From assembly GCA_054600435.1 (NCBI GenBank), contig BAAIJX010000085.1, positions 1-60,932 on the forward strand: a DNA stretch of 60,932 bases, written 5' to 3'. The notes beneath the pieces are model-generated. The model did not search any database. It saw only the letters and a program-made list of their open reading frames with translations, and was not told the DNA's origin. Each line of letters begins with the position of its first letter. Within the stretch, counting starts at the first letter, position 1. Source of the stretch: Neophaeotheca triangularis. Taxonomy: Eukaryota. The translations under genes were made by a program, and so were the position numbers. Shown in pieces: positions 10,905 through 40,380 of this stretch.

Positions 10905-13298
10905 ATGGCAGCCGAACCACCCAATCCGCCGCCCACAATGGTCGCCGGCAGCAAAAAACGCATCGCCGTCATGACCTCGGGCGGCGACGCGCCAGGCATG
11001 AACGGCGCCGTCCGCGCCGTCGTCCGCCAATCGATAGCGTCCGGCTGCACGGCTTACGCCGTCTACGAAGGCTACCAGGGGCTGGTGGACGGCGGCGACA
11101 TGATCCGCGAGATGACGTGGGAGGACGTGCGCGGCTGGTTGTCCGAGGGCGGGACGCTGATTGGCACGGCGCGGTGTAAGGCTTTCATGGAGCGGGCGGG
11201 CAGGCTCACGGCCGCGGACAATATGATCGAGAAGGGGGTTGATGCGTTGGTGATTTGTGGGGGTGATGGGAGTTTGACTGGCGCGGATAAGTTTAGGGGC
11301 GAGTGGCCGAGTTTGGTTGAGGAGTTGGTGACGAGTGGACGGCGCAAGGCGGAGGAGGTGGAGAAGTTTAGGCATTTGAATGTCGTCGGCTTGGTCGGGA
11401 GTATCGATAATGATATGAGTGGGACGGATGCGACGATTGGGTGTTATAGCTCGTTGCAGAGGATATGTCAGGCGGTCGATTTTATCGATGCCACCGCTTT
11501 CTCGCATCAGCGGGCTTTTGTCATTGAGGTCATGGGCAGGCATTGTGGATGGTTGGCGCTGATGGCCGGTGTGAGTTGCGGGGCCGACTTTGTCTTTTTG
11601 CCTGAGAACCCGCCTACTGCCAACTGGGAGCAGGACATGTGCTCGGTGGTGAGGAAGCACAGGCAGCTGGGCAAAAGGAAGACGATTGTCATTGTTGCGG
11701 AGGGTGCTCACGACAGGCAGCTCAACGCCATCACCCCGAAAGCTGTCAAGGATCTTCTTTCCGACGAGGTTGGGTTGGATACCAGGGTCACCACTCTCGG
11801 TCACGTTCAGCGTGGTGGTACTGCTTGCGCTTACGACCGTATGCTGGGTACCCTCCAAGGTGTCGAAGCCGTCAAGGCCGTTCTCGAAGCCACCCCTGAC
11901 ACTCCTTCCCCCGTCATCGGTATTGTCGAGAACAAGATTGTTCGTCGGGACCTCATCAAGGCTGTGGAAGATACCAAAAAGGTCGCCGCATGCATTGAGA
12001 AGCAAGACTTTGAGGGCGCCATGGCCATGAGAGATGCCGAGTTTGACGAATACTGGCAAGCTTTCAACACCACAACCGCGACCGACAAGGAAGACATGAA
12101 ACTCCCCACGAACGAACGGAAACGCGTCGGTATCATCCACGTGGGTGCGCCCGCAGGCGGTATGAACGCCGCGACTCGCGCCGCCGTGGCCTACTGCCTA
12201 ACCCGCGGCCACACGCCCGTAGCCCTCCACAACGGTTTCCCAGGTCTCTGCCGCCACCACGACGACAAGCCCGTCGGCTCCGTCCGCGAAATCACATGGC
12301 TGGAAGCCGAAAACTGGGCTTCCAAGGGTGGCAGCGAAATCGGCACCAACCGCGCCTTACCATCCGAAGACCTCCCCACGACCGCCATGTGCTTCGAAAA
12401 GTACAACATCGACGCTCTCTGGGTCTGCGGTGGCTTCGAAGCTTTCACGGCCGTCTCTGAACTCCGCAAAGCCCGCGCCGACTACGACGCCTTCAAAATC
12501 CCCATGGTTGTCCTACCCGCCACGGTCTCCAACAACGTCCCGGGCACCGAGTACTCCATCGGCTCCGACACGTGCATCAACGCCCTAATCGATTACTGCG
12601 ACGCCATCAAGCAATCCGCCTCAGCCTCGCGCCGCCGCGCCTTCGTCGTCGAAACCCAAGGCGGCGCCAGCGGCTACATTGCCACCCTCGCCGGCCTCGC
12701 CATCGGCGCTCTCGCCGTCTACACCCCCGAAGAAGGCATTCACCTCAACATGCTCGTCGAAGACATCAAATTCCTCAAAGACCAATTCGCCAAAGACAAG
12801 GGCGCTTCCCGCAGCGGCAAAATCATCCTCCGCAACGAAAAGGCTTCCAAGACCTACTCGACCGAAATCGTCGCCAACATCATCAAAGAGGAGTCCGGCG
12901 GCAAGTTCGACTGCCGTTTCGCCGTTCCCGGACACGTGCAACAGGGTGGCACGCCCAGCCCCATGGACCGCGTCCGCGCCGTCCGCTTCGGTGTCAAGGC
13001 TATGCAGTACCTCGAAACCTTTTCCGGCAAATCCAAATCCGCCATTGCCGAAGACGAGATGTCGGCTGCCATTATTGGCGTCCGTGGCAGTCGGGTCAAG
13101 TTCTCTCCCATGGAGCGTATTGAGCGCGAAGAGACGGACTGGAAGGACCGTCGACCCAAGGACGAGTTTTGGCTGGATTTGGTCGGCGTTGTGGATACGC
13201 TTTCCGGAAGGCCGAAGGCTATGCCTAGTACTGAGTTGGGTAGCTTGGCTAGTAAGTTTGATACGCGCAGGGCTAGTGTTTTTCACGCTGCGAAGTAG
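10905..13298 (+). CDS. pfkA: ATP-dependent 6-phosphofructokinase, eukaryotic type
   Basis: 797 aa, intronless; TSGGDAPGMN, GGDGSLTGA, GSIDND, EVMGRHCG, GHVQRGG, and a duplicated regulatory half (GAPAGGMN, GHVQQGG). Confidence 0.98.
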   Translation: MAAEPPNPPPTMVAGSKKRIAVMTSGGDAPGMNGAVRAVVRQSIASGCTAYAVYEGYQGLVDGGDMIREMTWEDVRGWLSEGGTLIGTARCKAFMERAGRLTAADNMIEKGVDALVICGGDGSLTGADKFRGEWPSLVEELVTSGRRKAEEVEKFRHLNVVGLVGSIDNDMSGTDATIGCYSSLQRICQAVDFIDATAFSHQRAFVIEVMGRHCGWLALMAGVSCGADFVFLPENPPTANWEQDMCSVVRKHRQLGKRKTIVIVAEGAHDRQLNAITPKAVKDLLSDEVGLDTRVTTLGHVQRGGTACAYDRMLGTLQGVEAVKAVLEATPDTPSPVIGIVENKIVRRDLIKAVEDTKKVAACIEKQDFEGAMAMRDAEFDEYWQAFNTTTATDKEDMKLPTNERKRVGIIHVGAPAGGMNAATRAAVAYCLTRGHTPVALHNGFPGLCRHHDDKPVGSVREITWLEAENWASKGGSEIGTNRALPSEDLPTTAMCFEKYNIDALWVCGGFEAFTAVSELRKARADYDAFKIPMVVLPATVSNNVPGTEYSIGSDTCINALIDYCDAIKQSASASRRRAFVVETQGGASGYIATLAGLAIGALAVYTPEEGIHLNMLVEDIKFLKDQFAKDKGASRSGKIILRNEKASKTYSTEIVANIIKEESGGKFDCRFAVPGHVQQGGTPSPMDRVRAVRFGVKAMQYLETFSGKSKSAIAEDEMSAAIIGVRGSRVKFSPMERIEREETDWKDRRPKDEFWLDLVGVVDTLSGRPKAMPSTELGSLASKFDTRRASVFHAAK

Positions 13299-13952
13299 AG
13301 GGTATGAGGAGGGAGTTGTAGGCTCGAAGGAAGGTCGAGGGAGCTTGCTTGACTGAATGGTTGCTTTGATGGGGAGTGGGTGCATACCTACCTAAGAGAT
13401 TGGAGGACTTCATGAGAGTGCTGATTGATAACGAGGGCGTTTGAAGGGGAAGGGGGGTTTCTTATTTTGTTTTTTCTAGCGGAGTTTTGTGTGTGGGCAG
13501 CTATAAGAACATCACATATACGACCTTCCCTTTTTTTTTTGCCCTGTTTCTTGCTTCTTCTGCGATCATGTGCTCTCGGCGGGGGTTCTTTCGAAGTTGG
13601 TCCTGCTCGCGTGTTATTCGGGAGGTCAGAGGAGCGCTCGAGGAATGATCGTCTTGCGTGTTGCTCTTGACCTTGGTCTCGAGGCTTGCTGAGATTGATA
13701 TACGCCTAAAGTATCGTTCTACACCGACCTTGAGCTCCTTTCAGATGTGGAGATGTGGTCGATTCTTGAATGTCAACTTTTCTTGAACTGCTCTTGCCTC
13801 ATTGGGAAGGTGAATCTCACTTTCCATCGCCGAGGTAATTCCGGCCGACGCGTCGTCTTTCGCGTCTGCAACAACACTTCCAATCCCGCGCTCCTCTCCA
13901 CAAACCCCCGTCTCAACCACAGCCAAGCAAACCACCCACCAACCCGCCAACA

Positions 13953-14855
13953 ATGTCCTCCCCAGACGCCGAAACCCCCTGGAATAACAGCCACCGCGCC
14001 TTCCTCCAAGCCATCCTAACCCACCAAACCCTCACCTACCAAACCGGCGCGGCACTACTCTCTGCAATCCAAACCGCCGCAACCCCCGACCGTCCCACCG
14101 CCACCGGCGACATAACCCTCGAAGACTTCACCAACACCATCGCGCAGCTAAACGAGCAACTCACGACGCTCGATTTCGAAATCCGCGCGACGACACACCA
14201 GCAGAGCAAAGAGCAAGTCTGGTGTCTGATCAACACGAGCGGCGACGGCATAGCGCAATTGGCGACGGGGTTCGGGGCAGAGGAGTTGGCGTTTGTCAAG
14301 CGCGTGCTGGATTTGATGTTTGAGCGGTACAACACACGCGCGGCGGAAGTGATGGCGGTGACGAGTATGCAGGCGTTGAAGGTTGCGAGACCTAGGGAGA
14401 GTTTGGGGGCTGGGAGGACGCAGGCTGCGGTGGCGACGAATGGGGTCACGATACGTGAGGCGGAGAGGGTTCTTGAGGGTTTGAGGGAGGAGGGGTGGTT
14501 GGAGTTGAGTGAGGCGGGGTTTTTTTCGCTGAGTCCGAGGGCTTTGATGGAGTTGAGGGGCTGGTTGGTGGAGACTTACAATGGGGTTGAGGTTGATGAG
14601 GAGGGGGAGGAGGAGGAGGTCGTGAAGCGGATTAGGCATTGTAAGGCTTGTGGGAATATCGTCACGGTCGGGCAGCGGTGTCCGGATTTGGACTGTGAGG
14701 GGAGATTGCATGTGGGTGCGAATGGGTGTGCGGGCAAGGTTTGGCGGGCGCAGAATGGGAGGCAGAAGTGTCCGGTTTGTGATAGGGATTGGGTTAATCC
14801 GTTGCCGGTTGGGGAGGAGGCTGCGAGGGGGAGGAGAAATACGGGAGGTGATTGA
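13953..14855 (+). CDS. nse1: Smc5/6 complex non-SMC element 1 (winged helix + RING-like)
   Basis: HRAFLQA N-terminus, LDFEIR, LSPRALMEL.WL, C-terminal CKAC..CPDLDC..H..C..CPVC. Confidence 0.88.
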   Translation: MSSPDAETPWNNSHRAFLQAILTHQTLTYQTGAALLSAIQTAATPDRPTATGDITLEDFTNTIAQLNEQLTTLDFEIRATTHQQSKEQVWCLINTSGDGIAQLATGFGAEELAFVKRVLDLMFERYNTRAAEVMAVTSMQALKVARPRESLGAGRTQAAVATNGVTIREAERVLEGLREEGWLELSEAGFFSLSPRALMELRGWLVETYNGVEVDEEGEEEEVVKRIRHCKACGNIVTVGQRCPDLDCEGRLHVGANGCAGKVWRAQNGRQKCPVCDRDWVNPLPVGEEAARGRRNTGGD

Positions 14856-17254: not shown

Positions 17255-20110
17255 ATGCGTAAGTCAAGACCTCCTTTCCTCAAATACTCGTACCTGATAC
17301 AGCACGTGCATAAGGTACGGGTATGGATGGAATTGGTAAACTATCTAAGCACCGCCCGACGCCACCTGGGCGCTCTTTTGGTCATCATCGGCAAGGTTTA
17401 AGCTCCACCCAAGCAGTCCACCTCTCCGCCTTGACAACGCTTCGCCCCTCTTGGTCTCCTCTTATTAACCCAACCCCAGCTTGCAGCTCTCTTAACTTAG
17501 ATCATCACTCTTCGTCCTTTCTTTGTCCACGTTACAACTTCACCGTCAACACTGATGAAAAACCCTTCTAACTTCTTGTCCAATTCAGACCGTTATCGAG
17601 CATACGCTAGAGAGACCGCACGAAACCAAACCAGCGACAAGAACGAACGAGCCATTCTTCCCAAAAACAACAGAAGTTCTATCAACAGCAAATCTGGCGA
17701 GTTAGACGAGAAACATGAGGCGCGCGAACGCTCCTCACGTGCCTCGAAGCGTCGACATGAAGATGCACCCAACCCTCAACTCGACGGCAATACCGGAGAT
17801 GAACGAGACCACATCAGCAGCGTTGCGACATCCACACACAACAACTCTGTTGATGCAACAACCCCAGTCCAGCCCCCTCCAGCTCCACCTCCGCTCAAAT
17901 CCCAGTATGAAGGCTCTGGAAATACCACCCTAGAACCTAGCGATGCTCCGGACAAACCTACCATGATTAATCGCATGAAAGCGGGTAGCATCCGTTTTGC
18001 TGGACACACCAAAGACGCCATCTTCCACAGCTGGGTCAACGTGCTCCTCATCTTCGTCCCCATCGGCATCATCGTGCAAGCCATCGGCCTGAGCCCGACA
18101 ATCGTCTTCGCAATGAACGCCATCGCCATCATCCCCTTAGCCGGACTCCTCGCTCACGCTACCGAGAGTGCTGCTAGCCGTCTCGGCGATAGTCTGGGAG
18201 CTTTGCTGAATGTCACTTTTGGCAATGCGGTGGAACTGATCATTTTCATCATCGCTTTGGTCAAAAATGAGATTCGCATCGTTCAGGCTTCTCTATTGGG
18301 GTCGATCTTGGCGAATTTGCTACTCATTCTGGGTATGGCCTTTTTGCTCGGTGGGCTCAGGTATCGCGAGCAGATTTACAACAGTACTGTCACCCAGATG
18401 AGTGCTTGTTTACTCAGTTTGAGTGTCATGAGTCTATTGCTTCCAGTAAGTCTTGTGGGATGCATGATGCTGGCATGTTGACAGACTGAACTAACTATTA
18501 GCTCCTAGACTGCCTTCCATGCCTCCTTCAACGCCGACTCGGTCGTAGACGCCAACAACTCCGTCCTCAAGGTCAGCCGAGGGACGAGTGTCGTCTTGCT
18601 ATTCGTCTACCTTTTGTACTTGCTCTTCCAGCTGAAATCTCACGCCTACATGTACGAAAGCACACCACAGGAGATTATCGACGAGGAATCTCATCCCGGT
18701 GTCCTGGCAAACATGCTGGACAGTTCTAGCTCGTCAGATAGTTCCAGCTCTTCCGATAGTAGCGACACGGATGCCTCGGGCTCGATCAACAACGCCGGCA
18801 GACGCCTGAAACGGGTCTGGAAGCATCGCAAGCGTAGAAAGTCGAGTGCCAGTAGCACTGTTGTACCTTCTGTTGTCAGCGCACCATCAATGGAAGAGTG
18901 CAACAGTCACCGGGACCCGGCTTCTAGGTCGTCGTCTCTACAAGAAGAGGGTCCGCGCACAACTACAAGCCACGATGATGATGAGGCCGACAATGAAGGG
19001 GTCGGTGGAAATCGCCCTCGTGTTCGTGATTTCGGAGGGTCGACAAACGATCGCTCTGGTTCGCCGGCCACGCAGACACGTCGTAAGAAGAAGTACTGCA
19101 AGAAGTGCAAGAGACATCACAAGAGGCATGACCACGACGGGCGGCCCCAAGATACACCGAACGGCAAGCTGCCAGCCCGCGCCCACGAAACACCCAGAGT
19201 TGGTTTCGCGGATGATGTTGAGGTCGCCGACTCCCGAGCCTCCCCGGAGCACGACTTCTCCCCTGCCAAGCGAGCGTTCAATATGCGCCAGCTATCGTCG
19301 CGGACATCGTTCCGTCCAGCATTGCCGAAGATGCTATCACAGACCGTCTTCACGCAGCCATCCCCTCACGCCACGCCTGCCACGCAATCAGCCGCCCCAT
19401 CCTTTCGCTCCCGCAGTTCCGGCCGCGGCCTCCGTCGTACTAGCTCCCTCCCAGACCGCCTAGACCGACAAAACACCCCGATCCCGACAACCACCACTAC
19501 CGACCCCATCCCGCCCTACCAAAATCACACCCACCCGGAGGCCTCTGACACTCCCTCCACGCCCTCAGGCCCTTCAGCCAAACCCCCCATGTCCCGCACA
19601 GCCGCCGTAGTCCTCCTTCTCGCCTCTACGGCCCTCGTAGCCGTCTGCGCCGAATTCATGGTCGACGCCATCCCAGCCATGATCGCCAGCACGCCCTCAG
19701 TCTCCGAAACCTTCATCGGCCTAATCATCCTCCCCATCGTCGGCAACGCGGCAGAACACGTAACCGCTGTCGTAGTCGCGACAAAAAACAAAATGGACCT
19801 CGCCATCGGCGTCGCGGTAGGCAGCTCGATACAAATCGCCCTCTTCGTGACACCTCTGGTCGTGTTGCTGGGTTGGGCGATGGAGAGGGATATGGGCCTG
19901 CATTTCAATCTTTTCGAAACTGTGGCGCTTTTTGTGGCGGTGTTTGTCGTTAACTTTTTGGTGCTGGATGGGAGGAGTAACTGGTTGGAAGGGGCGTTGC
20001 TTTGTGCTGCCTATATTATCATTGGGGTTGGGGCGTTTTTTTACCCGGCCGTTGAGAGGCAGAGTGAGGTTGGAGGTGGGATTGGGGGTGGGGGCGAGGC
20101 CATGGCTTGA
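17255..20110 (+). CDS. Vacuolar Ca2+/H+ exchanger (CaCA/CAX family) with long cytosolic loop, 3 coding exons
   Basis: Exons 17255-17258 (ATGC), 17589-18445, 18509-20110. Alpha-repeat motifs GNAVE and GNAAEH, plus KNKMDLAIGVAVGSSIQIALFV. Confidence 0.9.
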
Positions 20111-24634: not shown

Positions 24635-25575
24635 CTAACTCTTCTTGAACATAGTCGTAGCACCGGCCTGGTGGTTCGGGAAGATCAAGCTATCCGCCAC
24701 CACAACATTCTCCCGACGGCTTGCAGTGAAGACGACAATCTCGGCAATGTCATCTCCAGTCAAGGGCTCGCATCCGCTATGTTATGGTCAGTATTTACTA
24801 GTTCTGCATCGATTTGAACCAGGGCATGCTTCAACTTACGCGTACACGGCGTCGGCCTTGCTCTTGTCGCCGTAGAACCGCACCATTGAGAACTCCGTCT
24901 CGACTTGACCAGGGTCAACGCAGATCACGCGAACGCGCTTGTTGATCAGCTCCTTGCGCATAGCCTCGGTGAAGGCTCGCACGGCGGCCTTGGTCGCGCA
25001 GTAGATTGAGCCGTTGGGGTAGGGCTCGCGGCCAGCGATACTACCAATGTTGATGATGTCACCAGCGCCGTCGCCACCGTTGCGTGCCAGCATCCCCGGC
25101 AGAACTTCTTGGGTCATATTGACGAGACCGGTGACGTTGGTCTGGAACATGGTGTTCATGTCTTCCTCGGCGATCTCGGGCGCTCTGGCTACACCTTTGA
25201 CCAAGCCGCTGGGAACAATCGTTAGTCGCTTAGGCCCATGGGATATGTAGACAGGATTTCAGTCTCTTACGCATTGTTGACCAGGACATCGATCTGCTGG
25301 AATTCTTGGGGTAATCTGTTGACGAAGCCTTTGATCTCGCTCGATTTGCTCACGTCGAGCTGTACTGGCAGCACCTTGACGCCGCTGCCGACCTCTTTGC
25401 CGATCTCCTCTGCTAATTGCTTGAGGTTGTCGACTCGTCGGGCTGTGAGGATGAGTTTGAGGTCTGAAGGGCTTGTGCGTGCGAACTCAAGGGCTGTTGA
25501 TTTTCCGATGCCAGATGAAGCGCCGGTGATGAGGACGGTCTTGCCTGATAGGCGCTTGGAAGCTGCTGATGCCAT
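24635..25575 (-). CDS. NADP-dependent 3-hydroxyacid dehydrogenase (YdfG/YMR226C-type SDR), 3 exons
   Basis: Exons 25575-25271, 25208-24840, 24776-24635; TGASSGIG, NNAG, YCATK, PGQVETEFS, PLTGDDIAEIVVF..SRRENVV..FPNHQA. Confidence 0.9.
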
Positions 25576-25893
25576 GATTGATGTGAGGTATTTGTGTGCC
25601 TTTGATTGATTTGGTGGTGTAGGAAAATATATTGAGATGGAATGCTGTGATGTTGATAGTGTTGGAAATGCTGATACTTGCCAATGTCTGGAACAGCGAT
25701 TAGCTGGCCATTTATTTCACTACCAGGGGAGCAGGACCACTATACTATGGGTCGCGTTTCCGTCTGTCGTTTGGCCACTTGTCGTCTGTTGAAGCAGCAA
25801 GAGTTCTCCATGCGAGCATAAGGTACCGCGAGGATTCCGGAGTGGGTTTGTATCTTCCTATAATTCCGCCGATTCGCAGCCGGTTCCGTTTCC

Positions 25894-25904
25894 GTCGGAA
25901 AAGC
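25894..25904 (+). promoter_or_regulatory. Candidate Zn2Cys6 site GTCGGAAAAGC (SDR/aldolase divergent promoter)
   Basis: Identical motif also at 25959-25969 (-) and 27862-27872 (+); 10-mer core at 30047-30056 (-) and 31833-31842 (-). Confidence 0.55.
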
Positions 25905-26258
25905 CATGGAAGTCTACCTTATCCGACATGCCGGCGTACAGTGGGAGGCTTCTATGCTGCTTTTCCGACGCCCTCAAAACGAGTAGGAGGTAATGATGTG
26001 GTCCGGGTACAGTATCTGAGTACCCGCAATCTACGAACAATTGCCGTGGGGTTGCGGAGAGGCGAACATTGGCGAGTAATTGCGAAATGCTTAAGTTGGG
26101 TTGAGGGGATTGTTTTGTTTTCGCTATCATTTTATCGAACTGATTGCCTCCAAAAACGACCTCAACTCTGTAATCCGTGAATCAGATTCTCCAAGACCAA
26201 TCATACTCAATATCAATTAGATACCTGACTACGAGCGTATTTGTCAATTATCTCAGCC

Positions 26259-27299
26259 ATGGCAGTAATTGAAGCCCCGTCGGGCCTCCAAAACGGTGCC
26301 GCCCACACCAATGGATCGAACGGATCGGCCGTCAATGGCTCAACGACGAGACAGTCATCAAAAGTACCACGAGGCGGTGTTTGGACGCCAGCCATTACCT
26401 TCTTCGACCATGACACCGACAATTTGAACCTTGAATCGCAAGCAAAGTACTACTCCTACCTCTCAAAGAGCGGCCTAGGAGGGCTAGTCATCCTGGGAAC
26501 CAACGCAGAGACATTCCTTCTCACCCAAAGCGAGCGCAAACGACTAGTACACTGCGCCAGACAAGCATGCGGTCCCGACTACCCCATCATGGCCGGAGTT
26601 GGCGGCCACAGTACCAAGCAAGTACTCGAATACCTCGACGACGCCGCCTCGGCAGGCGCAGATTACGCTCTCCTCCTTCCCCCGGGATACTTTGGCAAGC
26701 AAACGACCCCCGAGGTCATCGACAGCTTCTTCCATGATGTCGCGACCGCTAGTCCCCTACCCATCGTCATCTACAACTTCCCCACAGTCTGCAACGGCAT
26801 TGATCTCGACTCCGCGACTCTCGCCCGCCTAGCTGCCTCACACCCAAACATTGTCGGCGTGAAGCTCACCTGCGGCGCCGTGGCCAAAATCACCCGTCTT
26901 TCCGCCGAGCTCTCGCCCGAGCGCTACGCAATCTACGGCGGACAATCAGACTTCCTGATCGGCGGTCTGGCCTCGGGAGCCGCAGGCACCATCGCCGGGT
27001 TCGGAAACGTCTTTCCCAAGACCCTAGTCAAGATCTACGATCTCTGGCAAGAAGGCCGTTTCAAGGAGGCCATGGAACTGCATCGGAAAGCTGCGCTCGC
27101 CGAGCAAGGCTGCAAGGCGGGAATCGCGACTGTCAAGTACGCGGCTTCGTACACTACTGCAGTGGCTGCGGGAATCGATAAGAGGGCTGCGATGAAGCAG
27201 CTGAAGCCCAGGCGGCCTTACAAGGAGCCGGGAGAGAAGGAGAAGGCCAACATCGACCGCTTGATCCAGCCGTTGATCGAAATTGAGGCTGCGCTTTGA
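26259..27299 (+). CDS. DHDPS/NAL-family class I aldolase (2-keto-3-deoxy sugar-acid aldolase, GaaC/LGA1-like)
   Basis: GTNAE motif, IYNFP, Schiff-base Lys in GVKLTCG; intronless. Confidence 0.9.
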   Translation: MAVIEAPSGLQNGAAHTNGSNGSAVNGSTTRQSSKVPRGGVWTPAITFFDHDTDNLNLESQAKYYSYLSKSGLGGLVILGTNAETFLLTQSERKRLVHCARQACGPDYPIMAGVGGHSTKQVLEYLDDAASAGADYALLLPPGYFGKQTTPEVIDSFFHDVATASPLPIVIYNFPTVCNGIDLDSATLARLAASHPNIVGVKLTCGAVAKITRLSAELSPERYAIYGGQSDFLIGGLASGAAGTIAGFGNVFPKTLVKIYDLWQEGRFKEAMELHRKAALAEQGCKAGIATVKYAASYTTAVAAGIDKRAAMKQLKPRRPYKEPGEKEKANIDRLIQPLIEIEAAL

Positions 27300-27861
27300 G
27301 TAGTGATAGGGCTAGCTGTTCACGTACAGATGGATTTATGACTGATAGTGACCATAAAATCGCTCCGTGTGCTTCAATGTAGCACTTTGATAGATCTTGA
27401 AGATATCCCGTCACTCTTGCCCGACGCCTCTCAGCAAGTACATGCCAATACCTTTTTTCAGCGAGTTCAGGGGTTTGCATAGCAAGTAGCCCAACAGAGA
27501 AGCTCTCAACGAATCCAATAAGTGTTCGAGACAAGGCTCAACAAACAATCATTGGATTCGGTTTGGTATTGATGGATCTATGGCGGTATGCAAATGCCGG
27601 ACGAATTGGACCAAAAGCTTTTGACAGCCCGCGATTAGCGGGGTCTCGAAACAGCCAATAGGAGACTAGCGTGTCTGAGGTGAAGTCCATTCCCGACCTC
27701 ATCTCGTCAGCCCCTCCACCGTGCTCCAAGGAGTAATGTGTATTTTACGTAGTGATACTCCGAAGTACGGCTATCTCACATATTCCATTTCGCGGGAATG
27801 ATCGTCGGCATTTTGTGATCGCCAAAGGGTGGCAGCTAGGTGAAGGGGGTGCATTCGCGGT

Positions 27862-27872
27862 GTCGGAAAAGC
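27862..27872 (+). promoter_or_regulatory. Candidate Zn2Cys6 site GTCGGAAAAGC (dehydratase promoter)
   Basis: Followed by the variant GACGGAAAAGC at 27882-27892. Confidence 0.55.
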
Positions 27873-28278
27873 TAGGGCGGAGACGGAAAAGCCTCCAAGG
27901 GTGGGGGCTGGGAGGGTGAGAGCACAGACGGGGCGTAACTGGGGTAGACTGCCAAGCATACCAAAGTTCCGCAAGACTCTCCGCTGATCCATCCAAAACA
28001 GCTTCACTTTCACTGCTGCGGCACCCACGGAAGCAGGCTGCTCATCTGGCGGCCTCTTTGCCCCTAAAGCGGCGAGATCGGAAAGGCGCTCGGACATGGC
28101 AGTATCCATTGGACTCCTCAGGACGGAGAAATGCTCCAGCGCCTATGTAAGCGTGTCAATAGAAAGCATACATGTAAGTCGGAGCATCCAGGTAGCTGCC
28201 TTTCTTGCCCTTCGCAACTCTCTCAGCGCTTCGAAGCAACTCACACTTACTCCACCTACTCCGCGTTAATCAAACGCC

Positions 28279-29571
28279 ATGGCTACCTCCGCGCCGACAA
28301 TCAAGGACATCGTGATCACACCCGTTGCTTTCCACGACCCCCCGTTGCTCAACGCTGTTGGAGTCCACGAACCTTATGCTCTCAGGAGTGTCATCGAACT
28401 CATTACGGACCGTAAAGATGGAGAGGAAGCAGTCTACGGCCTCGGCGAGTCGTACGGAGACTCCACGCACATCTCGCGCCTACAGAAAGCAGCCGAGAGC
28501 ATCAAAGGACTCGGCGTCTATCAGACAAACAAGATCTACCAAGCATGCGTGGACTCGCTCGTGGACGACAAATCCACTGGCGGTGACGGTATGGCGGGCA
28601 TGGTCACAACAGCATCGGCAGCGGACAAGGTGTTTTCACCATTTGAAGTGGCGTGCTTGGATATCCAGGGGAAAATTGCCGGTTTGCCTGTAAGCGATCT
28701 GCTCGGAGGGCAAGTGAGACCGAAGGTGGACTACTCGGCCTATCTATTTTACAAATGGGCTGCACACCCGGGAATGGATGAAGACGAGTATGGCGAAGCT
28801 TTGAATCCCGAAGGACTGATCAAGCAGGCTAAGAAGATGATTGATGAGTACGGTTTCAAAGCGATCAAGGTCAAGGGGGGTGTATTCCCGCCTCAAGAAG
28901 AAATCGATGCCATAAAAGCGCTGCGCAAGGCTTTCCCGGACTTGCCGTTGAGACTGGATCCAAATGCCGCATGGACTGTAGAGACGTCAAAGTGGGTCGG
29001 CAAGGAGCTCGAAGGCATCGTTGAGTATCTCGAAGACCCCGCACCAGAAATAGAGGGCATGGCAGAAGTGGTAAAGGGAGTCTCAATGCCCCTTGCCACT
29101 AACATGTGTACCGTGTCGTTCAGCCATCTGCCTCCCACAATCGCACAGAACGCCGTCCAAGTCGTCTTATCAGACCATCACTTCTGGGGCGGACTCCGGA
29201 AGTCGCAAACTCTCGCCTCCATCTGCTCAGTCTGGAACATGCGCTTATCGATGCACTCCAACAGCCACTTGGGGATCTCACTCGCCGCTATGACGCATTT
29301 AGCCTCGGCGACCCCGAATCTCGACTACGCATGCGACACCCATTGGCCGTGGAAACGCCGGGACGAGGACGTGGTCCAAGAGGGGGCTCTCAAGTGGAGA
29401 GACGGCGGAGTCGTAGTGCCCACGGCACCGGGATTGGGTATTGAGCTTGATAGAGAGAGGCTTGCTGCGCTGCATGAGCTGTACTTGAAGTGCGGACTGA
29501 GGAAAAGGGACGACACTGCGTACATGAGGAAGTTCCAACCAGATTTCTCTGCTGCATTGGCGCGATGGTGA
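28279..29571 (+). CDS. Glucarate dehydratase-like enolase-superfamily enzyme
   Basis: KVKGG (KxK), LDPNAAW, YLEDP, ATNM, DHHFWGG, MHSNSH, DTHWPW match the GudD subgroup signature; intronless. Confidence 0.9.
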   Translation: MATSAPTIKDIVITPVAFHDPPLLNAVGVHEPYALRSVIELITDRKDGEEAVYGLGESYGDSTHISRLQKAAESIKGLGVYQTNKIYQACVDSLVDDKSTGGDGMAGMVTTASAADKVFSPFEVACLDIQGKIAGLPVSDLLGGQVRPKVDYSAYLFYKWAAHPGMDEDEYGEALNPEGLIKQAKKMIDEYGFKAIKVKGGVFPPQEEIDAIKALRKAFPDLPLRLDPNAAWTVETSKWVGKELEGIVEYLEDPAPEIEGMAEVVKGVSMPLATNMCTVSFSHLPPTIAQNAVQVVLSDHHFWGGLRKSQTLASICSVWNMRLSMHSNSHLGISLAAMTHLASATPNLDYACDTHWPWKRRDEDVVQEGALKWRDGGVVVPTAPGLGIELDRERLAALHELYLKCGLRKRDDTAYMRKFQPDFSAALARW

Positions 29572-30046
29572 GGGGTGTGGCAGGCTAGCTGCTCCAGCAT
29601 TCTGAAGCGTATCGATCCAATTCACCTTGCCTTCTCCTGAGCATGATGCGCCACCCACGGAAATCTCTGAGCTCGTGACTGTGAAAAAGGCCTCGGATAA
29701 TGATGATACGTACCCGGCCCTATAGACGACACGGATTGGGACTGGCTCACCATCGATGACAACGGACTGATGGGGTGTGTGCGATCCGCTCGTTTGCAGG
29801 CATCCGCCTAAACAGTGAGACGGCAATGACTACCCAGGAGCCAGTGCCAGAATGCAGTTTTGCCATGACTGGGATCCTGGCAGTGCCGTACTTTAATTCC
29901 TTCCGGAGCCCGCCGCCTCGCGATATCCGCAAGTTCCGACGGCCATCAAAACATATCCGATTCGTCAAGCGAAGCGGAACCTTTGACTTTCCCATCGCCA
30001 ACACCACATCTCCGCAAATTTTGCGGGTTTACCAGGTGCTAGGACA

Positions 30047-30056
30047 CTTTTCCGAC
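30047..30056 (-). promoter_or_regulatory. Candidate Zn2Cys6 site GTCGGAAAAG (MFS promoter)
   Basis: CTTTTCCGAC on the + strand, about 300 nt upstream of the MFS ATG. Confidence 0.5.
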
Positions 30057-30360
30057 ACTTGCGGATGCGTAGTTTGCCACTAGCATGCACCCCGCACTAC
30101 TGAGAGCCAGGGAATGCCTTCCTCTTGCGTGAGGCGGGCCATGCGCAGCGGAGCTGGGGTCCCCAGATGTACCACATGGTGTCCGCCCATGGGGGTAGGC
30201 TTGGTCGATGGAAACCTCATATAACTGCCACCTTTGTCCCCGGATCCAACCCAGTAGCTCCCATCCCATCGATTCAATAGAAAACCCTTCTCTGAACTAT
30301 CCTTTCGCGAGACACTCTCGGTTCTGAGCCACCAGCACAATCAACAACACCATCAACGAT

Positions 30361-32149
30361 ATGGCCGGGATCCAGGTTGAGAAGCCGGACATTGTCCAAT
30401 TGGAGGTGGGCATGGTCCACGGCGACGACGGCGCTTCCAAACAGCACAATGTCGAACACATCGATGGCTTTAATGTCTTGGGTCTCAACCAAGAGGACGC
30501 CGACTTCTACCGGAACTTCTCGAAGAAGGAACGCGATGTTGCGAGACACAAAGTCGACATTCGACTCGTTCCCTTACTCGCCCTGCTTTATCTCATGTCC
30601 CATCTCGACCGCAGCAACATCGGGAACACAAAAATTGAGGGTATTGGTAAGGGATATAGTCCAAGATGCATCTGTGCAACCATTTCAGCGTGCTGACTTG
30701 ATTCAGACCAGGATCTAGGGATCAGCGACGTTCAGTGGAATGTCCTCCTTTCACTATTCTTCGTCCCGTACATCCTCCTCGAGATTCCATCGAACATTAT
30801 CCTCAAGCGCTTCAACCGCCCGTCATACTACATGGGTATCTTGGTCACCTGCTGGGGAATTATCATGACCTGCCACGGTGTTGTCACCAACTACGCTGGT
30901 ATCATGGTCCTACGCATCCTGCTCGGTGTCTTTGAGGCTGGTTTCTTCCCCGGTGCCGTCTACTTGGCTTCTTTCTGGTACATGCCAAAAGATCTTGCCG
31001 CCCGCATCTCGTGGTTCTACTGCTTCAGTGCCCTTTCTGGTGCTTTCTCCGGCATGTTGGCCGCTGCCATTGCCCAGATGGATGGCGTTGGAGGCTACGA
31101 AGGCTGGAGGTGGATCTTCATCTTGGAGGGCGTGGTCACTGTCGCCGTCGGTGTTGCCACATTCTTCATCATGGTCGACACTCCATCTCTCAGCACCAAA
31201 TGGCTGAAGCCGGAAGAGGTCCGATTCTTGAATTTGCAACACTTCGTTAAGCAAGGTGGTCGCTTCGCAGACGAGACCCAGGAGCGGCGCAACATTTGGC
31301 ACGATCTGAAGGCCGTCCTCTTGAACTGGAGGCTTTGGCTTCTAACGTGGGTCCAGTTCTGCCAGTCTGCTACTGCCTATGGTAAGTCAACACCTCCGTC
31401 GTTGCGCTATCGTGGCCCACCACCCGCAGTGCGAAAACTAAATAAGTATTTACAGGCACGAAGTTCACTTTGCCTACGCTCACACGAGCCATGGGTTTCG
31501 AGAGCACAAATGCTCAACTCATGTCCGCCCCTCCGTACGTACTCGGCGCCATCGCCACCATCGTTCTCGCCAAGATTTCCGATCGCGTCTACTGGCGTAT
31601 GCCGTTTGTCGTTGGCCCTTTCGCCGCAATTTGCACAGGCTTCGCTATTATGCTTGGACTCCAAGGAGACTTTGAGAACCAGCTTGGTGCTTCCTACTTC
31701 GCTGTTTGCATCGCCTGCATGGGCATCTACCCTGCTGCCCCTGCTCTCATTGCCTGGGTGGGTAACAATTCCGCTCCGTCCTCGCGTCGGGCAGTCGCTC
31801 TGTAAGTTCCCCCTTTTTGGAAAAAAACTTTCCTTTTCCGACCCCATGTCTCAATATATTCAAGCTAACACTAGACAGTGCGACTAACATATGTATGGGA
31901 AATGTGGGAGGCATCATGGGTAGCTATATGTTTTACGATTCTGACGCTCCCGCATACAATACCGGTTTCGGTTTGTCGATTACCTTCGGAATCACGGGCT
32001 TGCTCGCGGCCGTTGCGGCAGAGCTTAGCTTCAAGTGGGCCAATAGCAAGAGGGACAAGCTAGACGAAGAGGAGATCCGTGCCAGGTACGACAACGACGA
32101 GCTCATGAGGATGGGTGACAACAACCCCCTTTATAGGTACACTCTGTAG
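30361..32149 (+). CDS. MFS transporter, anion:cation symporter (Dal5/Tna1-like) family, 4 exons
   Basis: Introns 30647-30706, 31382-31455, 31802-31878; LDRSNIGN, RILLGVFEAGFFPG, GWRWIFILEG, and a C-terminal YRYTL. Confidence 0.92.
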
Positions 32150-35789: not shown

Positions 35790-37310
35790 CTACAACTTGG
35801 CATACACAGTAGCCACACTCCCCGCCATCTCAACAAGCGTACTCTTATTCCGCACCCAAGCCTCCAACCCCCTCCTGCCATTCTCCACCCCCAACCCACT
35901 GCGCTTCCACCCCCCAACCGACATCTCCGCGGGTGAATCCCCCCAAGTGTTAATCCAGCAAATCCCCGCTTCCAATTTCCCGACAACAGTATGCGCCAGA
36001 TTCAAGTCGCTCGTAAAGACACCCGCCGCGAGGCCCATCGGAGTGTCGTTGGCGCGAGCCAGGAGGGGTGGGAGCCAGGAACTGCTTGGTCCGGTGGAGG
36101 AATAGGGCAGCAGGCACATCACCGGGCCGAAGATCTCGTCGCGGGCGATGAGCATGTCGTCGGTGACGTTTGTGAAGACAGTTGGTCGGGTCCAGTAGCC
36201 GGCTTTGTTGGCGGACGGGGGAAGATCGGGTGGTGCGCCGAGGCCACCGGTTAGGAGAGTGGCTTTGTCGGTCTCGAGACCGTGGCGGATGTAAGAAGAG
36301 ACTTTTTCGTGGTGCGGGCGGCTTACGAGGGGCCCGAAATTGGTCGCAGGGTCCATGACGTCTCCGGCGCGGATGTGGGACATTTTTTGCAGGAGTATAC
36401 GTTCGAAATCTTGGAGCCGGTTGGAAGGAACGAAGACGCGGGTGCCGTTTGTGCAGACTTGGCCCGAGGAGTAGAAGTTGGCCATCATGGCGCCGTCGAC
36501 GGCGGTCTCGAGGTCGGCGTCGGGAAGCACGAGCAGTGGGGATTTACCGCCGAGTTCCATGGTTGCGTATTTCATGCCCGCTGCCGCGGCCGAGGCGACT
36601 TTGCTGCCAGTGCTGACTTGGCCTGTGAAGGAGACTTTGGCGATTCCTGGGTGGGAGGTGAGAGCGCTGCCGACGTCGCCGGCTCCGTGGACTACGTTGA
36701 AGACGCCTGGGGGCACGCCCGCTTCGGTGTAGATTTCAGCTAGCTTTAGGGCGTGCAAGGGAGTGAACTCGGAGGGTTTGTAGACCATGCAGTTGCCGGC
36801 TGCGAGGCAAGGGGCGGATTTCCACAAAGCGATTTGGATGGGGTAGTTCCAGGCACCGATGCCTGCGCAGACGCCTAGGGGAGCTTTGGTGGTGTAGACC
36901 CAGGCGTCAGGGCGGAGACGAGTGGTTTCGCCATTGAGTCCACCTGAGGCGACGAGGTTGGCATAGTATTCGAGGACGTCGGTGCCGGTTACGACGTCCA
37001 CAGCTGAGGTTTCCGAATAGGGTTTTCCCGTGTCGCGGGTTTCTATCTCAGCTAGTTGGTCGTTTCGTTCGCGGAGGAGGGCTACTGCTTTGAGGAGGAT
37101 TCGAGATCGCTCCATGGGGGAGGTTTCAGACCATGATGGAAAAGCTTTGTGGGCTGCGTTGACGGCCGCGTCTATGGAAGAGTTGTCCGCTTTGCAAACG
37201 TCCGCGAGGGGGTTGTTGTTTGCCGGGTCGATGGTTTGAAAGGTGGAGGAGGTTGTTTGACGTTTACCGTCGTAGTAGAGGGGTTGAGTCTCGTAGCGGT
37301 GGTTAGACAT
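35790..37310 (-). CDS. Betaine aldehyde dehydrogenase
   Basis: [23 protein letters not shown] (BetB-like), [25 protein letters not shown]-terminal AKL; divergent from choline oxidase. Confidence 0.93.
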
Positions 37311-37989
37311 GATCACGACAGGGGTTTGTAGATGTTGTTGAGAGAGCTGGTATTGTTCTAGATCAATCAAATAGGAGTCGAGTGGATGCTGCGGATAAGT
37401 GATGACCGTTCAATGGTCAACAATAATAATGCTGGAGCTGATGTCGCCAAGGGGCTTGCTTTTGTCTAGCTTGCCACCCTCGCTGTCCGCGCGATGTGCC
37501 GAAGGTTTGCCTCAGTCCTGGCCTGGGCTTTCTGAACAGCCCGAGAGGTTTGTGGCAGTGGATGTGGTAACTTTTGATTGTTGTTATTGATGTCGTGCTT
37601 CTGCCAACTGCTTAGAAGCGGGTGTAATAAGCCTTTTTAGCGGTGCAAAATGCAAAGGTAGACAGTAGCAGGAGGTGCTACTACTAGAAGGTCAGATGAA
37701 CAATAGTGCAGGGTCCGAGAGTCGAGCGGGCACGCTAGGGCGTATAGGTATCAAAAGAGGCCGAACCCGATGCGGCAAAAAGCACGTGATGTTGCGCCGC
37801 GAGGACGATCGTGTCTAGTGTACAGACGTCACAGCAAGATTGGCAAGGGCATATAAAGGTATGCTGTGTCCTTGAATCGTGGAAATTGAGGCAGTATATG
37901 GTGAATGTGGTGATATGTCGAGACATGAGGTTCTGCTGAAGTGAAGGTGTCGTCGAGTGCCAATGCTAGCACCAAGCCGGAAGAGGTTA

Positions 37990-38007: not shown

Positions 38008-38691
38008 AAGAAAAGATGTCAAGGTACTAGTAGTTACTGCGAGTACTAAGTTACATAGTACCTAGAGTTAACCGCAGCCAACCGCGTGTGCTAGTGGATT
38101 ACCTTATCATCATCATCAGCCACTGCTGTTGCTCCCAAACGACCACCAACTACCTCCTCCTACTACTACTACTACTAGCAGAACCACTACTACTACTACC
38201 ACTACTACTACTGGCATCTTTCTTGCTCTCATCGGCCTCCACTCGGACCTTCTCATCCTCGTCTACCCTTGCAAGTCTTCCCTTTCTACCTGGACGACAT
38301 CGCTTGGCGTCGGCTCTTTCCACGCTAAATCGCGTGATACGCAAGAGGAAAAGCGCAATCATCTCGCCCTTGTCGTCCTCCTCGTCGTCGTCGTCGTCGC
38401 TTGCCTCCCGTCTGGTCACTCCCCTCTCCTCTTGTGGCTGTGAAACTTGACACCCATACAACTGTATCCACGCCTTCAACAAGGTTTTCTGCCAATCATC
38501 GCCAATCGGTGAGGAATAGCTTGCTTATCTACTCCGTCTCCCCCCCTTCTCTTGCTTCTTACCTTCCCTTTCTGCTCCTCTCTCAAACTCCTCTCTACCA
38601 CTTACCTCAACACATCCTCTCTCCTCTTCTCTTCTCTTCTCATACCACACCTCAGCCTCCTTGGTAGCTCACCACCACCACCACCACCACC

Positions 38692-40380
38692 ATGGCCAGC
38701 GAGAAAGCAAACATTTCCACCACCCCTGGTCCTCTCCCCACCACCGGCACCACCGATCAGCTTCCTCAATCCGACGTCGACAGCTATGACTTTATCATTG
38801 TCGGAGGAGGTACCGCCGGCTGCGTTATTGCAGCCCGCCTCTCGAAATACCTCCCCAATAAAAAAGTCCTACTCATCGAAGCTGGTCCCTCCGACTTCAT
38901 GGACGACCGCGTCCTTTTACTCAAAGACTGGTTGAACCTCATCGGTACCGATCTCGACTACGACTACGGCACTACCGAGCAGCCTATGGGCAACTCCAAC
39001 ATCCGCCATTCCCGCGCCAAAGTCCTCGGAGGCTGCTCGAGCCACAACACCCTCATTTCCTTCCGACCCTTTGAATACGATGCTCAAAGATGGCAGGCAC
39101 AAGGTTGCAAGGGATGGGACTTCAAGACATTCACACGCGTATTGGACAATCTCAAGAATACGGTACAACCTGTACACGAGAGGCACAGGAACCAGCTGTG
39201 CATCGACTGGGTGAACAGCTGCTCGAAGGCATTGAACATCCCCGTAATCGAAGATTTCAACAAAGAGATCAAAGACACAGGCGCGCTCAAGGAATGCGTG
39301 GGCTTCTTCAACGTAGCCTACAACCCAGACACCGGCCACCGTAGCAGCGCAAGTGTAGCTTACATCCACCCGATCCTCGAGCAAAAGGAAACCCGCCCCA
39401 ACCTCACCATCCTCACCAACGCCTGGGTGAGCAAAATCAACGTCACCAACTCCTCCAAAGTCACTGGCGTCAACCTCACCCTCAAAGACGGTAGCAAACG
39501 CACCCTCCGCCACCGCGCCGAGACCATCCTCTGCGCCGGTGCAGTCGACACTCCCCGCCTAATGATGCTCTCCGGTTTAGGCCCCAAAAAGCAACTCACC
39601 GACCTCGGCATCCCGCTAATCAAAGACATGCCCGGCGTTGGCGAAAACCTCCTCGATCACCCAGAAAGCATCATAATGTGGGAACTCAACAAGCCCGTGC
39701 CGGCCAACCAAACAACCCAAGACTCGGACGCGGGCATTTTTCTCCGCCGCGAGGTCCCCAACGCCGCAGGCTCCGACGGCGCCATCGCAGACGTCATGAT
39801 GCACTGCTACCAAATCCCCTTTGTCTACAACACGGCGCGCCTAGGCTACGACAGCCCCAAAGACGCCTTCTGCATGACACCCAACATCCCTCGCCCACGC
39901 TCGCGCGGCCGCATCTTCCTAACCTCCTCCGACCCTAGCGTCAAGCCCTCTCTCGACTTCCGCTACTTCACCGACCCGGAAGGCTACGACGCGGCCACCA
40001 TCGTCGCGGGCCTCAAAGCCGCCCGCGAAATCGCCAAACAAGCCCCCTTCAAAGACTGGATCAAGCGCGAAGTCGCCCCAGGGCCCAAACTCACCACGGA
40101 CGAGGAACTCTCCGAGTACGGCCGCCGCGTCGCTCACACTGTCTACCACCCCGCTGGCACGACGAAGATGGGGGATGTGAGCGGAGATTCTTACGCGGTC
40201 GTGGATCCCGAGTTGAGGGTCCGGGAAATGGAGGGTTTGCGGATTGCCGATGCCGGCGTTTTTCCCGATATGCCGAGTATTAATCCTATGCTCACGGTGC
40301 TGGCAATTGGGGAGAGGGCGGCGGAGATGTTGGCGGAGAGTTGGGGTGGCAAGACCGAGGGGGTCAGGGCTAGGTTGTAG
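38692..40380 (+). CDS. codA: Choline oxidase (GMC oxidoreductase)
   Basis: GGGTAG, RHSRAKVLGGCSSHN (His of the covalent-FAD region of choline oxidases), GENLLDH, TVYHPAGT, INP; C-terminal ARL. Confidence 0.93.
   Translation: MASEKANISTTPGPLPTTGTTDQLPQSDVDSYDFIIVGGGTAGCVIAARLSKYLPNKKVLLIEAGPSDFMDDRVLLLKDWLNLIGTDLDYDYGTTEQPMGNSNIRHSRAKVLGGCSSHNTLISFRPFEYDAQRWQAQGCKGWDFKTFTRVLDNLKNTVQPVHERHRNQLCIDWVNSCSKALNIPVIEDFNKEIKDTGALKECVGFFNVAYNPDTGHRSSASVAYIHPILEQKETRPNLTILTNAWVSKINVTNSSKVTGVNLTLKDGSKRTLRHRAETILCAGAVDTPRLMMLSGLGPKKQLTDLGIPLIKDMPGVGENLLDHPESIIMWELNKPVPANQTTQDSDAGIFLRREVPNAAGSDGAIADVMMHCYQIPFVYNTARLGYDSPKDAFCMTPNIPRPRSRGRIFLTSSDPSVKPSLDFRYFTDPEGYDAATIVAGLKAAREIAKQAPFKDWIKREVAPGPKLTTDEELSEYGRRVAHTVYHPAGTTKMGDVSGDSYAVVDPELRVREMEGLRIADAGVFPDMPSINPMLTVLAIGERAAEMLAESWGGKTEGVRARL

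Follow-up and report, generated by a model that had tools for sequence, protein, structure and literature searches.

We have analysed a stretch of 60,932 nucleotides from Neophaeotheca triangularis (GenBank assembly GCA_054600435.1, contig BAAIJX010000085.1, positions 1 to 60,932 of the forward strand), referred to below as the window, in which a candidate gene cluster for the catabolism of a sugar diacid occupies positions 24635-32149. The region holds four intact genes: one for a short-chain dehydrogenase/reductase (SDR) on the reverse strand and, on the forward strand, genes for a DHDPS-family enzyme, an enolase-superfamily dehydratase (ENOL) and an ACS-type transporter of the major facilitator superfamily (MFS). 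Its outer ends are the stop codons of the SDR gene (24635) and of the MFS gene (32149). A first-pass annotation of the sequence had proposed four adjacent genes of these families, and gene models combined with Pfam and NCBIfam matches confirmed them at these positions.

The SDR gene (24635-25575, reverse strand), of the YMR226C/YdfG type, encodes 271 amino acids in three exons (25575-25271, 25208-24840 and 24776-24635). Its introns, GTAAGA..CAG and GTAAGT..TAG, have canonical GT..AG boundaries and the spliced frame is open. It is transcribed divergently from the gene for the DHDPS/NAL-family Schiff-base enzyme (26259-27299, forward strand, a single exon, 346 amino acids), with a 683-bp spacer between them (25576-26258). 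A second spacer (27300-28278) leads to ENOL, of the glucarate-dehydratase subgroup (28279-29571, forward strand, a single exon, 430 amino acids), and a third (29572-30360) to the MFS gene, of the ACS type (2.A.1.14) (30361-32149, forward strand; exons 30361-30646, 30707-31381, 31456-31801 and 31879-32149; 525 amino acids), where the introns are GTAAG..CAG throughout and the spliced frame is again open. ENOL and the DHDPS gene are thus without introns while SDR has two and MFS three, each of the five beginning with GTAAG and ending in CAG or TAG.

Relatives of the dehydratase turned up at 13 loci (numbered with the prefix L) when metagenome contigs were scanned. Twelve are fungal-like, with 73-81% identity and a G+C content of 45-54% in the seven that were measured, and one (L010) is bacterial. 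When the window proteins were compared with these loci by tblastn, the DHDPS gene was found in six of them (L002, L003, L006, L007, L009, L012), the MFS gene, adjoining either the dehydratase or the DHDPS gene, also in six (L001, L002, L003, L006, L007, L009), and the SDR gene in four (L002, L003, L006, L009). Wherever the contig extends 3 kb or more upstream of ENOL (L002, L003, L006, L007, L009), both the DHDPS gene and the MFS are present; L004 is too short to show partners. The order of the genes varies. It is SDR (reversed), DHDPS, ENOL, MFS in the window; SDR, DHDPS, MFS (reversed), ENOL in L002 and L003, which are near-identical to each other; and MFS (reversed), DHDPS, ENOL, a transcription factor gene and SDR in L006 and L009, with which L007 agrees over its reach.

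Named genomes gave the same picture. The named proteins most similar to ENOL, at about 80% identity, come from Cladosporium and Saxophila, and in six named fungal genomes the locus tags place the dehydratase and the DHDPS gene side by side or with a single gene between them: side by side in Cladosporium fusiforme (001544/001543), Saxophila tyrrhenica (000548/000549) and Monosporascus ibericus (004914/004913), and separated by one gene in Exophiala bonariae (005558/005560), Knufia obscura (010319/010317) and Thyridium curvatum (009064/009062). Because the four genes recur together in three orders, on independent fungal contigs and in named genomes, their linkage is not due to chance, and the earlier claim of a gene cluster is borne out by synteny. 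It might still be argued that the genes are neighbours without a common function, as fungal genomes often contain SDRs of the YMR226C type and transporters of the Dal5/ACS type. We consider this highly improbable, since the linkage is kept over three gene orders and several fungal classes, together with a regulator and a spacer motif. Public annotation already names the orthologues automatically as 'glucarate dehydratase' and '4-hydroxy-2-oxoglutarate aldolase', so the new element here is the cluster and its pathway and not the single names.

A Zn2Cys6/Fungal_trans regulator gene flanks the cluster in six of the metagenome loci (L002, L005, L006, L008, L009, L013). The window contains such a gene at 45133-47497 on the forward strand, 13 kb beyond the MFS, with a Fungal_trans match of 82.7 bits and a Cys-rich motif (ACDRCKR / RKVKCDGRQPCQICSKVDASC) that is interrupted by an intron. 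In a tblastn comparison the L009 regulator matched the window with 40-71% identity over 45275-47498, and the window gene is probably the orthologue of the in-cluster regulator of other fungi. In the three cluster spacers, 2,451 bp in all, the sequence CGGA[AT]A occurs 13 times against 2.6 expected from the other window DNA outside open reading frames (18 occurrences in 17,138 bp), a result that is suggestive only, as the motif was found post hoc. Five of the sites lie in the divergent SDR/DHDPS promoter region (25757, 25889, 25896, 25920, 25962), three between the DHDPS gene and the dehydratase (27864, 27884, 28079) and five between the dehydratase and the MFS (29658, 29694, 29924, 29954, 30049). 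In the cluster spacers of five loci, 7-mers that contain CGGA rank among the most enriched words, and related 8-mers of the SDR/DHDPS spacer are common to cluster spacers of other loci. The Zn2Cys6 factor probably switches the cluster genes on through CGGA(A/T)A sites.

ENOL matches Pfam MR_MLE_C with 194 bits. Its best NCBIfam model is that of glucarate dehydratase (TIGR03247, 253.2 bits, the next family scoring 90.6), and the alignment is near full length, running from residue 4 to 423 over positions 2-430 of the 441 in the model. The closest structures in the PDB are 3va8 (768.4 bits), 3vdg (600.2), 3vc5 (552.9) and 4it1 (449.6), whereas characterised glucarate dehydratase (GlucD) structures match at 214-233 bits. 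The four were deposited as 'probable dehydratase', 'probable' or 'putative glucarate dehydratase' and 'mandelate racemase/muconate lactonizing protein', with no tested function. The ENOL family forms a clade apart from canonical GlucD, with about 33-35% identity. We therefore assign ENOL to the glucarate dehydratase subgroup of the enolase superfamily, but not to canonical GlucD.

Aligned with the E. coli GudD sequence of L014, ENOL is identical at 17 of the 19 active-site and ligand positions checked: N27, H32, Y150, F152, K205, K207, D235, N237, E260, N289, D313, H339, S340, N341, D366, H368 and R422. The residue numbers were checked on the GudD sequence; the catalytic and ligand roles are those that we take these 19 positions to have. 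The Lys-x-Lys base (GudD K205/K207, ENOL K197/K199) and the His-Asp dyad (H339/D313, ENOL H326/D299) are kept, as are the Mg2+ ligands D235, E260 and N289 (ENOL D227, E252 and N275), and ten of the eleven residues in the substrate-contact set (N27, H32, T103, Y150, F152, N237, S340, N341, D366, H368, R422) are identical. GudX of E. coli, a poor enzyme, keeps the same substrate-contact residues, so their conservation is not proof of ENOL activity. Two public gene models from Colletotrichum (P0030, P0113) fuse a transporter domain (PF00083/PF07690) to the dehydratase and are probably mis-merged neighbours.

One genome per prokaryotic species was scanned for ENOL, which gave at least 556 relatives; the best 80 of these (loci L015-L094) are all from Actinomycetota, with 57-67% identity to ENOL, and only they were used for the counts of flanking genes. 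Within 8 kb of the ENOL orthologue (tblastn E<=1e-20, identity at least 35%) a KdgD-type gene was present in 61 of the 80 loci, an aldehyde dehydrogenase in 42, a uronate-dehydrogenase-like gene in 19 and an L-talarate/galactarate dehydratase (TalrD/GalrD) in 11, while a GarL-like and GarR-like pair was found in one. Eleven of the twelve DHDPS-family neighbours tested passed the KdgD subfamily model NF002958, with 400-425 bits against a cut-off of 278, and both TalrD/GalrD neighbours tested passed their NCBIfam equivalog. Since the bacterial neighbours include KdgD-type enzymes, which consume 5-keto-4-deoxyglucarate (KDG), and TalrD/GalrD, the ENOL family can be placed in aldarate or uronate catabolism, and the KdgD neighbourhood is the main support for the aldarate reading. 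The description of ENOL as a dehydratase with a GudD signature in the first-pass annotation is thereby upheld, by its subgroup, by its active-site residues and by orthologues that stand beside KdgD in aldarate/uronate loci.

In some of the genomes, such as those of L094, L072 and L080, the ENOL type is the sole member of the GlucD subgroup and stands beside uronate-dehydrogenase-like and KdgD genes, in L094 and L080 with an aldehyde dehydrogenase in addition; among the genes seen in the 8-kb flanks it is there the sole enolase-superfamily candidate for the dehydratase step. Further DHDPS-family matches near bacterial orthologues were considered as relatives of the fungal enzyme and rejected, those of L072 and L080 resembling housekeeping DapA genes by their motifs and that of L037 another family member. 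The bacterial metagenome contig L010 (66% G+C) carries, in the stretch 10001-12050, a 51%-identical relative of the dehydratase that is overlapped at its end by a uronate-dehydrogenase-like gene with 45% identity to that of L094.

A quick maximum-likelihood tree of 54 sequences, rooted on E. coli GudD and GudX and obtained from a short search without comparison to alternative topologies, grouped the 16 fungal sequences as a single clade (SH-aLRT 96), which falls within actinobacterial sequences and beside an uncultured Actinomycetota genome (95). The position of the fungal clade inside Actinomycetota suggests that the dehydratase gene reached fungi by horizontal transfer from this phylum, and both the tree and the lack of introns in ENOL fit a single transfer from bacteria to fungi. 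We regard as solid the conclusion that the region is a conserved fungal catabolic cluster under regulation, centred on a dehydratase of the aldarate type that came from bacteria.

The DHDPS-family protein matches Pfam DHDPS (PF00701) with 139.2 bits against a cut-off of 22.1 and is the orthologue of the fungal structure PDB 3qfe, from Coccidioides (424.5 bits). Its next PDB matches, human HOGA1 (3s5o, 98.8 bits) and E. coli YagE (96.8 bits), are both aldolases; from the difference between 98.8 and 424.5 bits it is not a HOGA1 orthologue. It scores far under the KdgD cut-offs (NF002958, 74.5 against 278 bits; TIGR03249, 66.4 against 373.95), and no KdgD structure is among its 60 best PDB matches. 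Judged by these scores, the fungal protein is not a KdgD. The residues G80-T81-N82-A83-E84, Y144, Y172, K202 and T204 align with G76-S77-N78-G79-E80, Y140, Y168, K196 and S198 of 4-hydroxy-2-oxoglutarate aldolase (HOGA), so that the Schiff-base lysine is K202, accompanied by tyrosines Y172 and Y144 and with the hydroxyl residue of the proton relay kept as T81. K202, Y172, Y144, N82 and T204 are conserved in the four fungal orthologues that were aligned. In the HOGA study (PMC3188589), Asn78 is modelled on the distal carboxylate and Ser198 on the 4-hydroxyl, and the two are called unique HOGA substrate-binding residues. They are matched in the fungal protein by N82 and T204, the change from Ser to Thr being conservative, whereas four aligned bacterial KdgDs have GTGE and K-D-G in place of the fungal GTNAE and K-L-T. 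The protein thus appears to resemble a class I aldolase for a 4-hydroxy-2-oxo-dicarboxylate rather than KdgD. This agrees with the earlier proposal of a class I aldolase of the DHDPS family, which is strengthened by the model scores and the HOGA-like residues.

If the DHDPS-family enzyme were KdgD-like after all, it would turn KDG into 2,5-dioxopentanoate by dehydration and decarboxylation, an unlinked aldehyde dehydrogenase would then produce 2-oxoglutarate, and the SDR would have a side role or another one. The frequent pairing of the bacterial orthologues with KdgD (61/80) and with aldehyde dehydrogenase (42/80) speaks for such a route, as does the fact that KdgD has the same fold and Schiff-base chemistry, sequence alone being unable to separate a lyase from a dehydratase. 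However, the KdgD model scores, the replacement of GTGE and K-D-G by HOGA-like residues and the lack of KdgD structures among the best PDB matches are all against it, the fungal clusters share no conserved 2,5-dioxovalerate dehydrogenase, and the conserved SDR would be left without a role. We consider this route quite unlikely. The aldolase/reductase route is favoured because of the HOGA-like residues, the want of a conserved 2,5-dioxovalerate dehydrogenase and the class of the conserved SDR. The aldehyde dehydrogenase found in the window at 35790-37409 (reverse strand) was rejected as a candidate for the missing dehydrogenase, being of the betaine type, located beside a GMC oxidoreductase and without an orthologue near the cluster in other loci. 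In L002 a methylmalonate-semialdehyde dehydrogenase gene (12309-13964; TIGR01722, 498 bits against 448.5) directly follows the dehydratase; this may be chance or may reflect an alternative fate of the semialdehyde product.

The two large exons of the SDR gene match Pfam adh_short with 69.9 and 105.3 bits, and the translation carries TGASSGIG, NNAG and YCATK. The best NCBIfam model for exon 2 is YdfG (NF007829, 110.9 bits for this exon alone, the cut-off of 411 applying to the whole protein), and the nearest structures for the same exon are yeast YMR226C (3rku, 131.7 bits), E. coli YdfG (3asu, 93.8) and sulfoacetaldehyde reductase (6ixj, 90.5). We classify the protein by these matches as a classical SDR of the YMR226C/YdfG type; this type, named already in the first-pass annotation, is corroborated by the nearest structures, and the gene is linked to the cluster in the four loci given above. 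Members of this class act as reductases on short, acid-bearing aldehydes such as malonate semialdehyde. The YdfG class also oxidises glycerate, for which a literature search gave no confirmation. We propose that the SDR would act as a tartronate semialdehyde reductase giving glycerate.

Alternatively, the SDR could stand at the start of an oxidative uronate pathway and convert a uronic acid or aldose-acid to an aldarolactone, in the way that the SDR LRA1 acts on L-rhamnose. An SDR does carry out the first oxidation in fungal non-phosphorylative sugar pathways, and a uronate-dehydrogenase-like gene is present in 19 of the 80 bacterial loci as well as in L010. Against this, the nearest characterised relatives of the SDR are YMR226C, YdfG and sulfoacetaldehyde reductase and not sugar dehydrogenases, the bacterial uronate dehydrogenases belong to the extended SDR branch that matches Pfam Epimerase, and the product of the aldolase would still require a reductase, so that a role at the start of the pathway seems improbable. 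A fungal L-rhamnose gene cluster has been described (PMC5674754).

The MFS protein matches Pfam MFS_1 with 91.6 bits. The best NCBIfam model for its exon 2 is TIGR00893 '2A0114' (ACS), at 134.1 bits for the exon alone, with a cut-off of 395 for the whole protein, and the spliced protein aligns with E. coli GudP at 21% identity over 435 amino acids (E 1.3e-12). It is proposed to be the sugar-diacid importer.

These results lead us to a model in which the cluster is a conserved and co-regulated fungal unit that would catabolise a six-carbon sugar diacid (D-glucarate, galactarate, or a related hexarate or lactone) to pyruvate and glycerate, a reading to which we lean, though only just. The ACS-type MFS would import the sugar diacid. 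The dehydratase would then abstract the proton beside one carboxylate and eliminate water to give KDG, using the Lys-x-Lys and His-Asp bases and the Mg2+ site. Like the HOGA substrate, KDG is a 4-hydroxy-2-oxo-dicarboxylate, but with one carbon more, and it is the C6-carboxylate analogue of L-threo-3-deoxy-hexulosonate, the substrate of GaaC. The DHDPS-family enzyme would form a Schiff base at Lys202 and cleave KDG by a retro-aldol reaction to pyruvate and tartronate semialdehyde, which the YMR226C/YdfG-type SDR would reduce to glycerate with NADPH. The Zn2Cys6 factor, whose gene is usually in the cluster, would activate the genes through the CGGA(A/T)A spacer sites. We infer the substrate, the aldol cleavage, the substrate of the SDR and the regulation; for the aldolase step, the reductase step and the exact substrate the support is moderate and wholly of this kind.

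Several observations weigh against this model, beginning with the dehydratase. With 253.2 bits ENOL is well below the canonical GlucD cut-off of TIGR03247 (828.7), and two of the checked GudD positions are changed, T103 to G107, in a loop that is less reliably aligned, and E266 to I258. Of 15 actinobacterial genomes with an ENOL-type gene, nine also have a canonical-type GlucD (764-830 bits), and the ENOL orthologues themselves score 231-277 bits on TIGR03247. The nine genomes are G001-G004, G006-G009 and G014 (L020, L028, L033, L061, L036, L037, L054, L067, L023), and in six of them the two genes lie on one contig, 3-23 kb apart; in four genomes the ENOL type occurs alongside both canonical GlucD and TalrD/GalrD, and the remaining six of the 15 have the ENOL type without canonical GlucD. 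It is thus possible that the ENOL family uses some other aldarate or a lactone, or that it is a paralogue of low activity comparable to GudX. As for the aldolase, the GxxGE carboxylate loop reads GTNAE in the window (GTNSE in L002), with the second Gly replaced, the bacterial partner of the dehydratase is KdgD and not an aldolase, and the case for the aldolase step in fungi is entirely one of residue resemblance. L011 has no partner gene in the 10 kb downstream of its dehydratase, the upstream side being off the contig, and the CGGA[AT]A motif was found and tested on the same data. In Aspergillus niger, deletion of a galactarate-induced gene of the mandelate racemase/muconate lactonizing (MR/MLE) type had no effect (PMC5153877).

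The coexistence with canonical GlucD is the reason why we word the substrate as a hexarate, possibly D-glucarate or galactarate. The earlier designation of D-glucarate as the substrate is not established, given this coexistence and the separate clade. The pairing of canonical GlucD with a GlucD-like protein in Actinomycetota recalls gudD and gudX of E. coli. One may go further and suppose that the cluster is a real catabolic unit with a function unlike that of canonical GlucD, in which a pentarate would be converted to 4-hydroxy-2-oxoglutarate and cleaved to pyruvate and glyoxylate, or another acid sugar would be used. Low identity to canonical GlucD in a separate clade, the presence of GlucD in nine of 15 genomes and of GlucD with TalrD/GalrD in four, the automatic naming of the DHDPS orthologues as 4-hydroxy-2-oxoglutarate aldolase by several sources and the lack of an assigned function for the solved dehydratase structures all speak for this. 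However, in 61 of 80 loci the dehydratase is tightly paired with KdgD, whose substrate KDG has six carbons; N27, H32 and R422, which we take to be contacts of the far carboxylate, are kept; and a YdfG-type SDR suits tartronate semialdehyde, a 3-oxo-acid, better than glyoxylate. A substrate other than a hexarate thus appears unlikely.

The interpretation put forward in the first-pass annotation stands as far as the cluster, the families and the linkage are concerned. For the glucarate substrate it is not established, and 'self-contained' is too strong a term for the pathway because the cluster has no glycerate kinase. Neither the dedicated Zn2Cys6 regulator nor the probable origin of the dehydratase in bacteria had been noticed in it.

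Between the MFS gene and the regulator gene the window has genes that are unrelated to the cluster, for an alpha/beta hydrolase, a betaine aldehyde dehydrogenase, a GMC oxidoreductase, two unknown proteins and a PHD-finger protein. The betaine aldehyde dehydrogenase (NF009725, 693 bits against a cut-off of 593; PDB entries of this enzyme about 560 bits) adjoins the GMC oxidoreductase (38668-40380, forward strand), and the two resemble a choline-to-glycine-betaine pair inserted between cluster and regulator. Other neighbours in the window are a phosphofructokinase (10872-13298, forward strand), an Nse1-like SMC5-6 subunit (13839-14855, forward strand), a membrane protein of the Na/Ca-exchanger family (17501-20110, forward strand) and a second, unrelated SDR (7634-8449, reverse strand).

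The fungal galactarate pathway has been called unknown by Kuivanen et al. (2016), and the use of galactarate by A. niger needs three genes of unknown function that are unrelated to the cluster (PMC5153877). In the supplement to that paper, within chr_602 720414-722942, the MR/MLE gene 1146483 is followed 6 bp on by the SDR gene 1126171, and both rise on galacturonate, glucuronate and galactarate. The two form a further dehydratase-SDR pair. We set 1146483 aside as expression evidence, as the available data show no DHDPS gene on that chromosome piece. Nor does it seem to be an ENOL orthologue, by a weak test: when hexapeptides of 1146483 (from two open reading frame primers and two sgRNA targets given there) were compared with 120 fungal orthologues, none had fewer than two mismatches. 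The accessible sections of two reviews (PMC6353982, 2019; PMC12076931, 2025) add no fungal dehydratase route. Our literature searches, which covered the structures, the genes FGSG_03643-03647, fungal glucarate and tartronate semialdehyde, and the composition of the cluster, found no description of such a fungal cluster, in keeping with the earlier statement that none of this composition was known to have been characterised.

Tentatively, and with somewhat less than even confidence, we go on to suggest that the cluster is a patchwork and the first aldarate pathway in fungi: a GlucD-like dehydratase would have been taken once from Actinomycetota by an ancestor of the filamentous ascomycetes and wired to a HOGA-like class I aldolase and a YMR226C-type reductase in place of KdgD, its partner in bacteria, with a dedicated ACS importer and regulation by a Zn2Cys6 factor through CGGA(A/T)A. 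If so, the chemistry of E. coli GarL and GarR was rebuilt in a eukaryote from unrelated protein families, and the cluster would show clearly how a bacterial enzyme gained by horizontal transfer has been incorporated into a eukaryotic cluster with non-orthologous partners. With its five genes it is a concrete candidate that can be put to the test and occurs in many Dothideomycetes, Eurotiomycetes, Sordariomycetes and Leotiomycetes, and it offers a likely role for the structurally solved enzyme family of 3va8, 3vdg, 3vc5 and 4it1, and also for 3qfe. Glucaric and galactaric acids are platform chemicals made with engineered moulds and yeasts, in which breakdown of the product by the host must be removed.

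The proposed pathway can be compared with several known systems. Human HOGA1 shares with the fungal DHDPS-family enzyme the fold, the Schiff-base Lys, the Tyr and the Ser/Thr relay, and its Asn78 and Ser198 correspond to N82 and T204, but the match is just 98.8 bits and the proposed fungal substrate is one carbon longer. The fungal D-galacturonate pathway GaaB/GaaC/GaaD (described partly in PMC6353982) has the same architecture of an enolase-superfamily dehydratase for an acid sugar, a pyruvate-releasing DHDPS-family aldolase and the reduction of an aldehyde. The cluster would differ from it in the clades of the enzymes and in the diacid substrate, and it differs in tight clustering with a transporter and a regulator. 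The actinobacterial GlucD-like proteins (3vdg, 3vc5) and Fusarium 3va8 belong to the same family as ENOL; however, the actinobacterial partners are KdgD and an aldehyde dehydrogenase, which lead toward 2-oxoglutarate, whereas the fungal partners are a HOGA-like DHDPS-family enzyme and an SDR. The E. coli system GudP/GarP-GudD-GarD-GarL-GarR-GarK follows the same logic as that proposed here, with an ACS-family importer, a dehydratase of the GlucD subgroup, aldol cleavage and reduction to glycerate. In the fungi, however, the dehydratase is from another clade (253 bits against the cut-off of 828.7), the regulator is a Zn2Cys6 protein and glycerate kinase is not in the cluster. The candidate aldolase is a class I enzyme of the DHDPS family where GarL is a class II enzyme of the HpcH/HpaI type, and the reductase is a classical SDR where GarR is of the 3-hydroxyisobutyrate-dehydrogenase type. 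As the fungal cluster has no gene of the garL or garR type, the earlier view that it draws on families other than these two holds.

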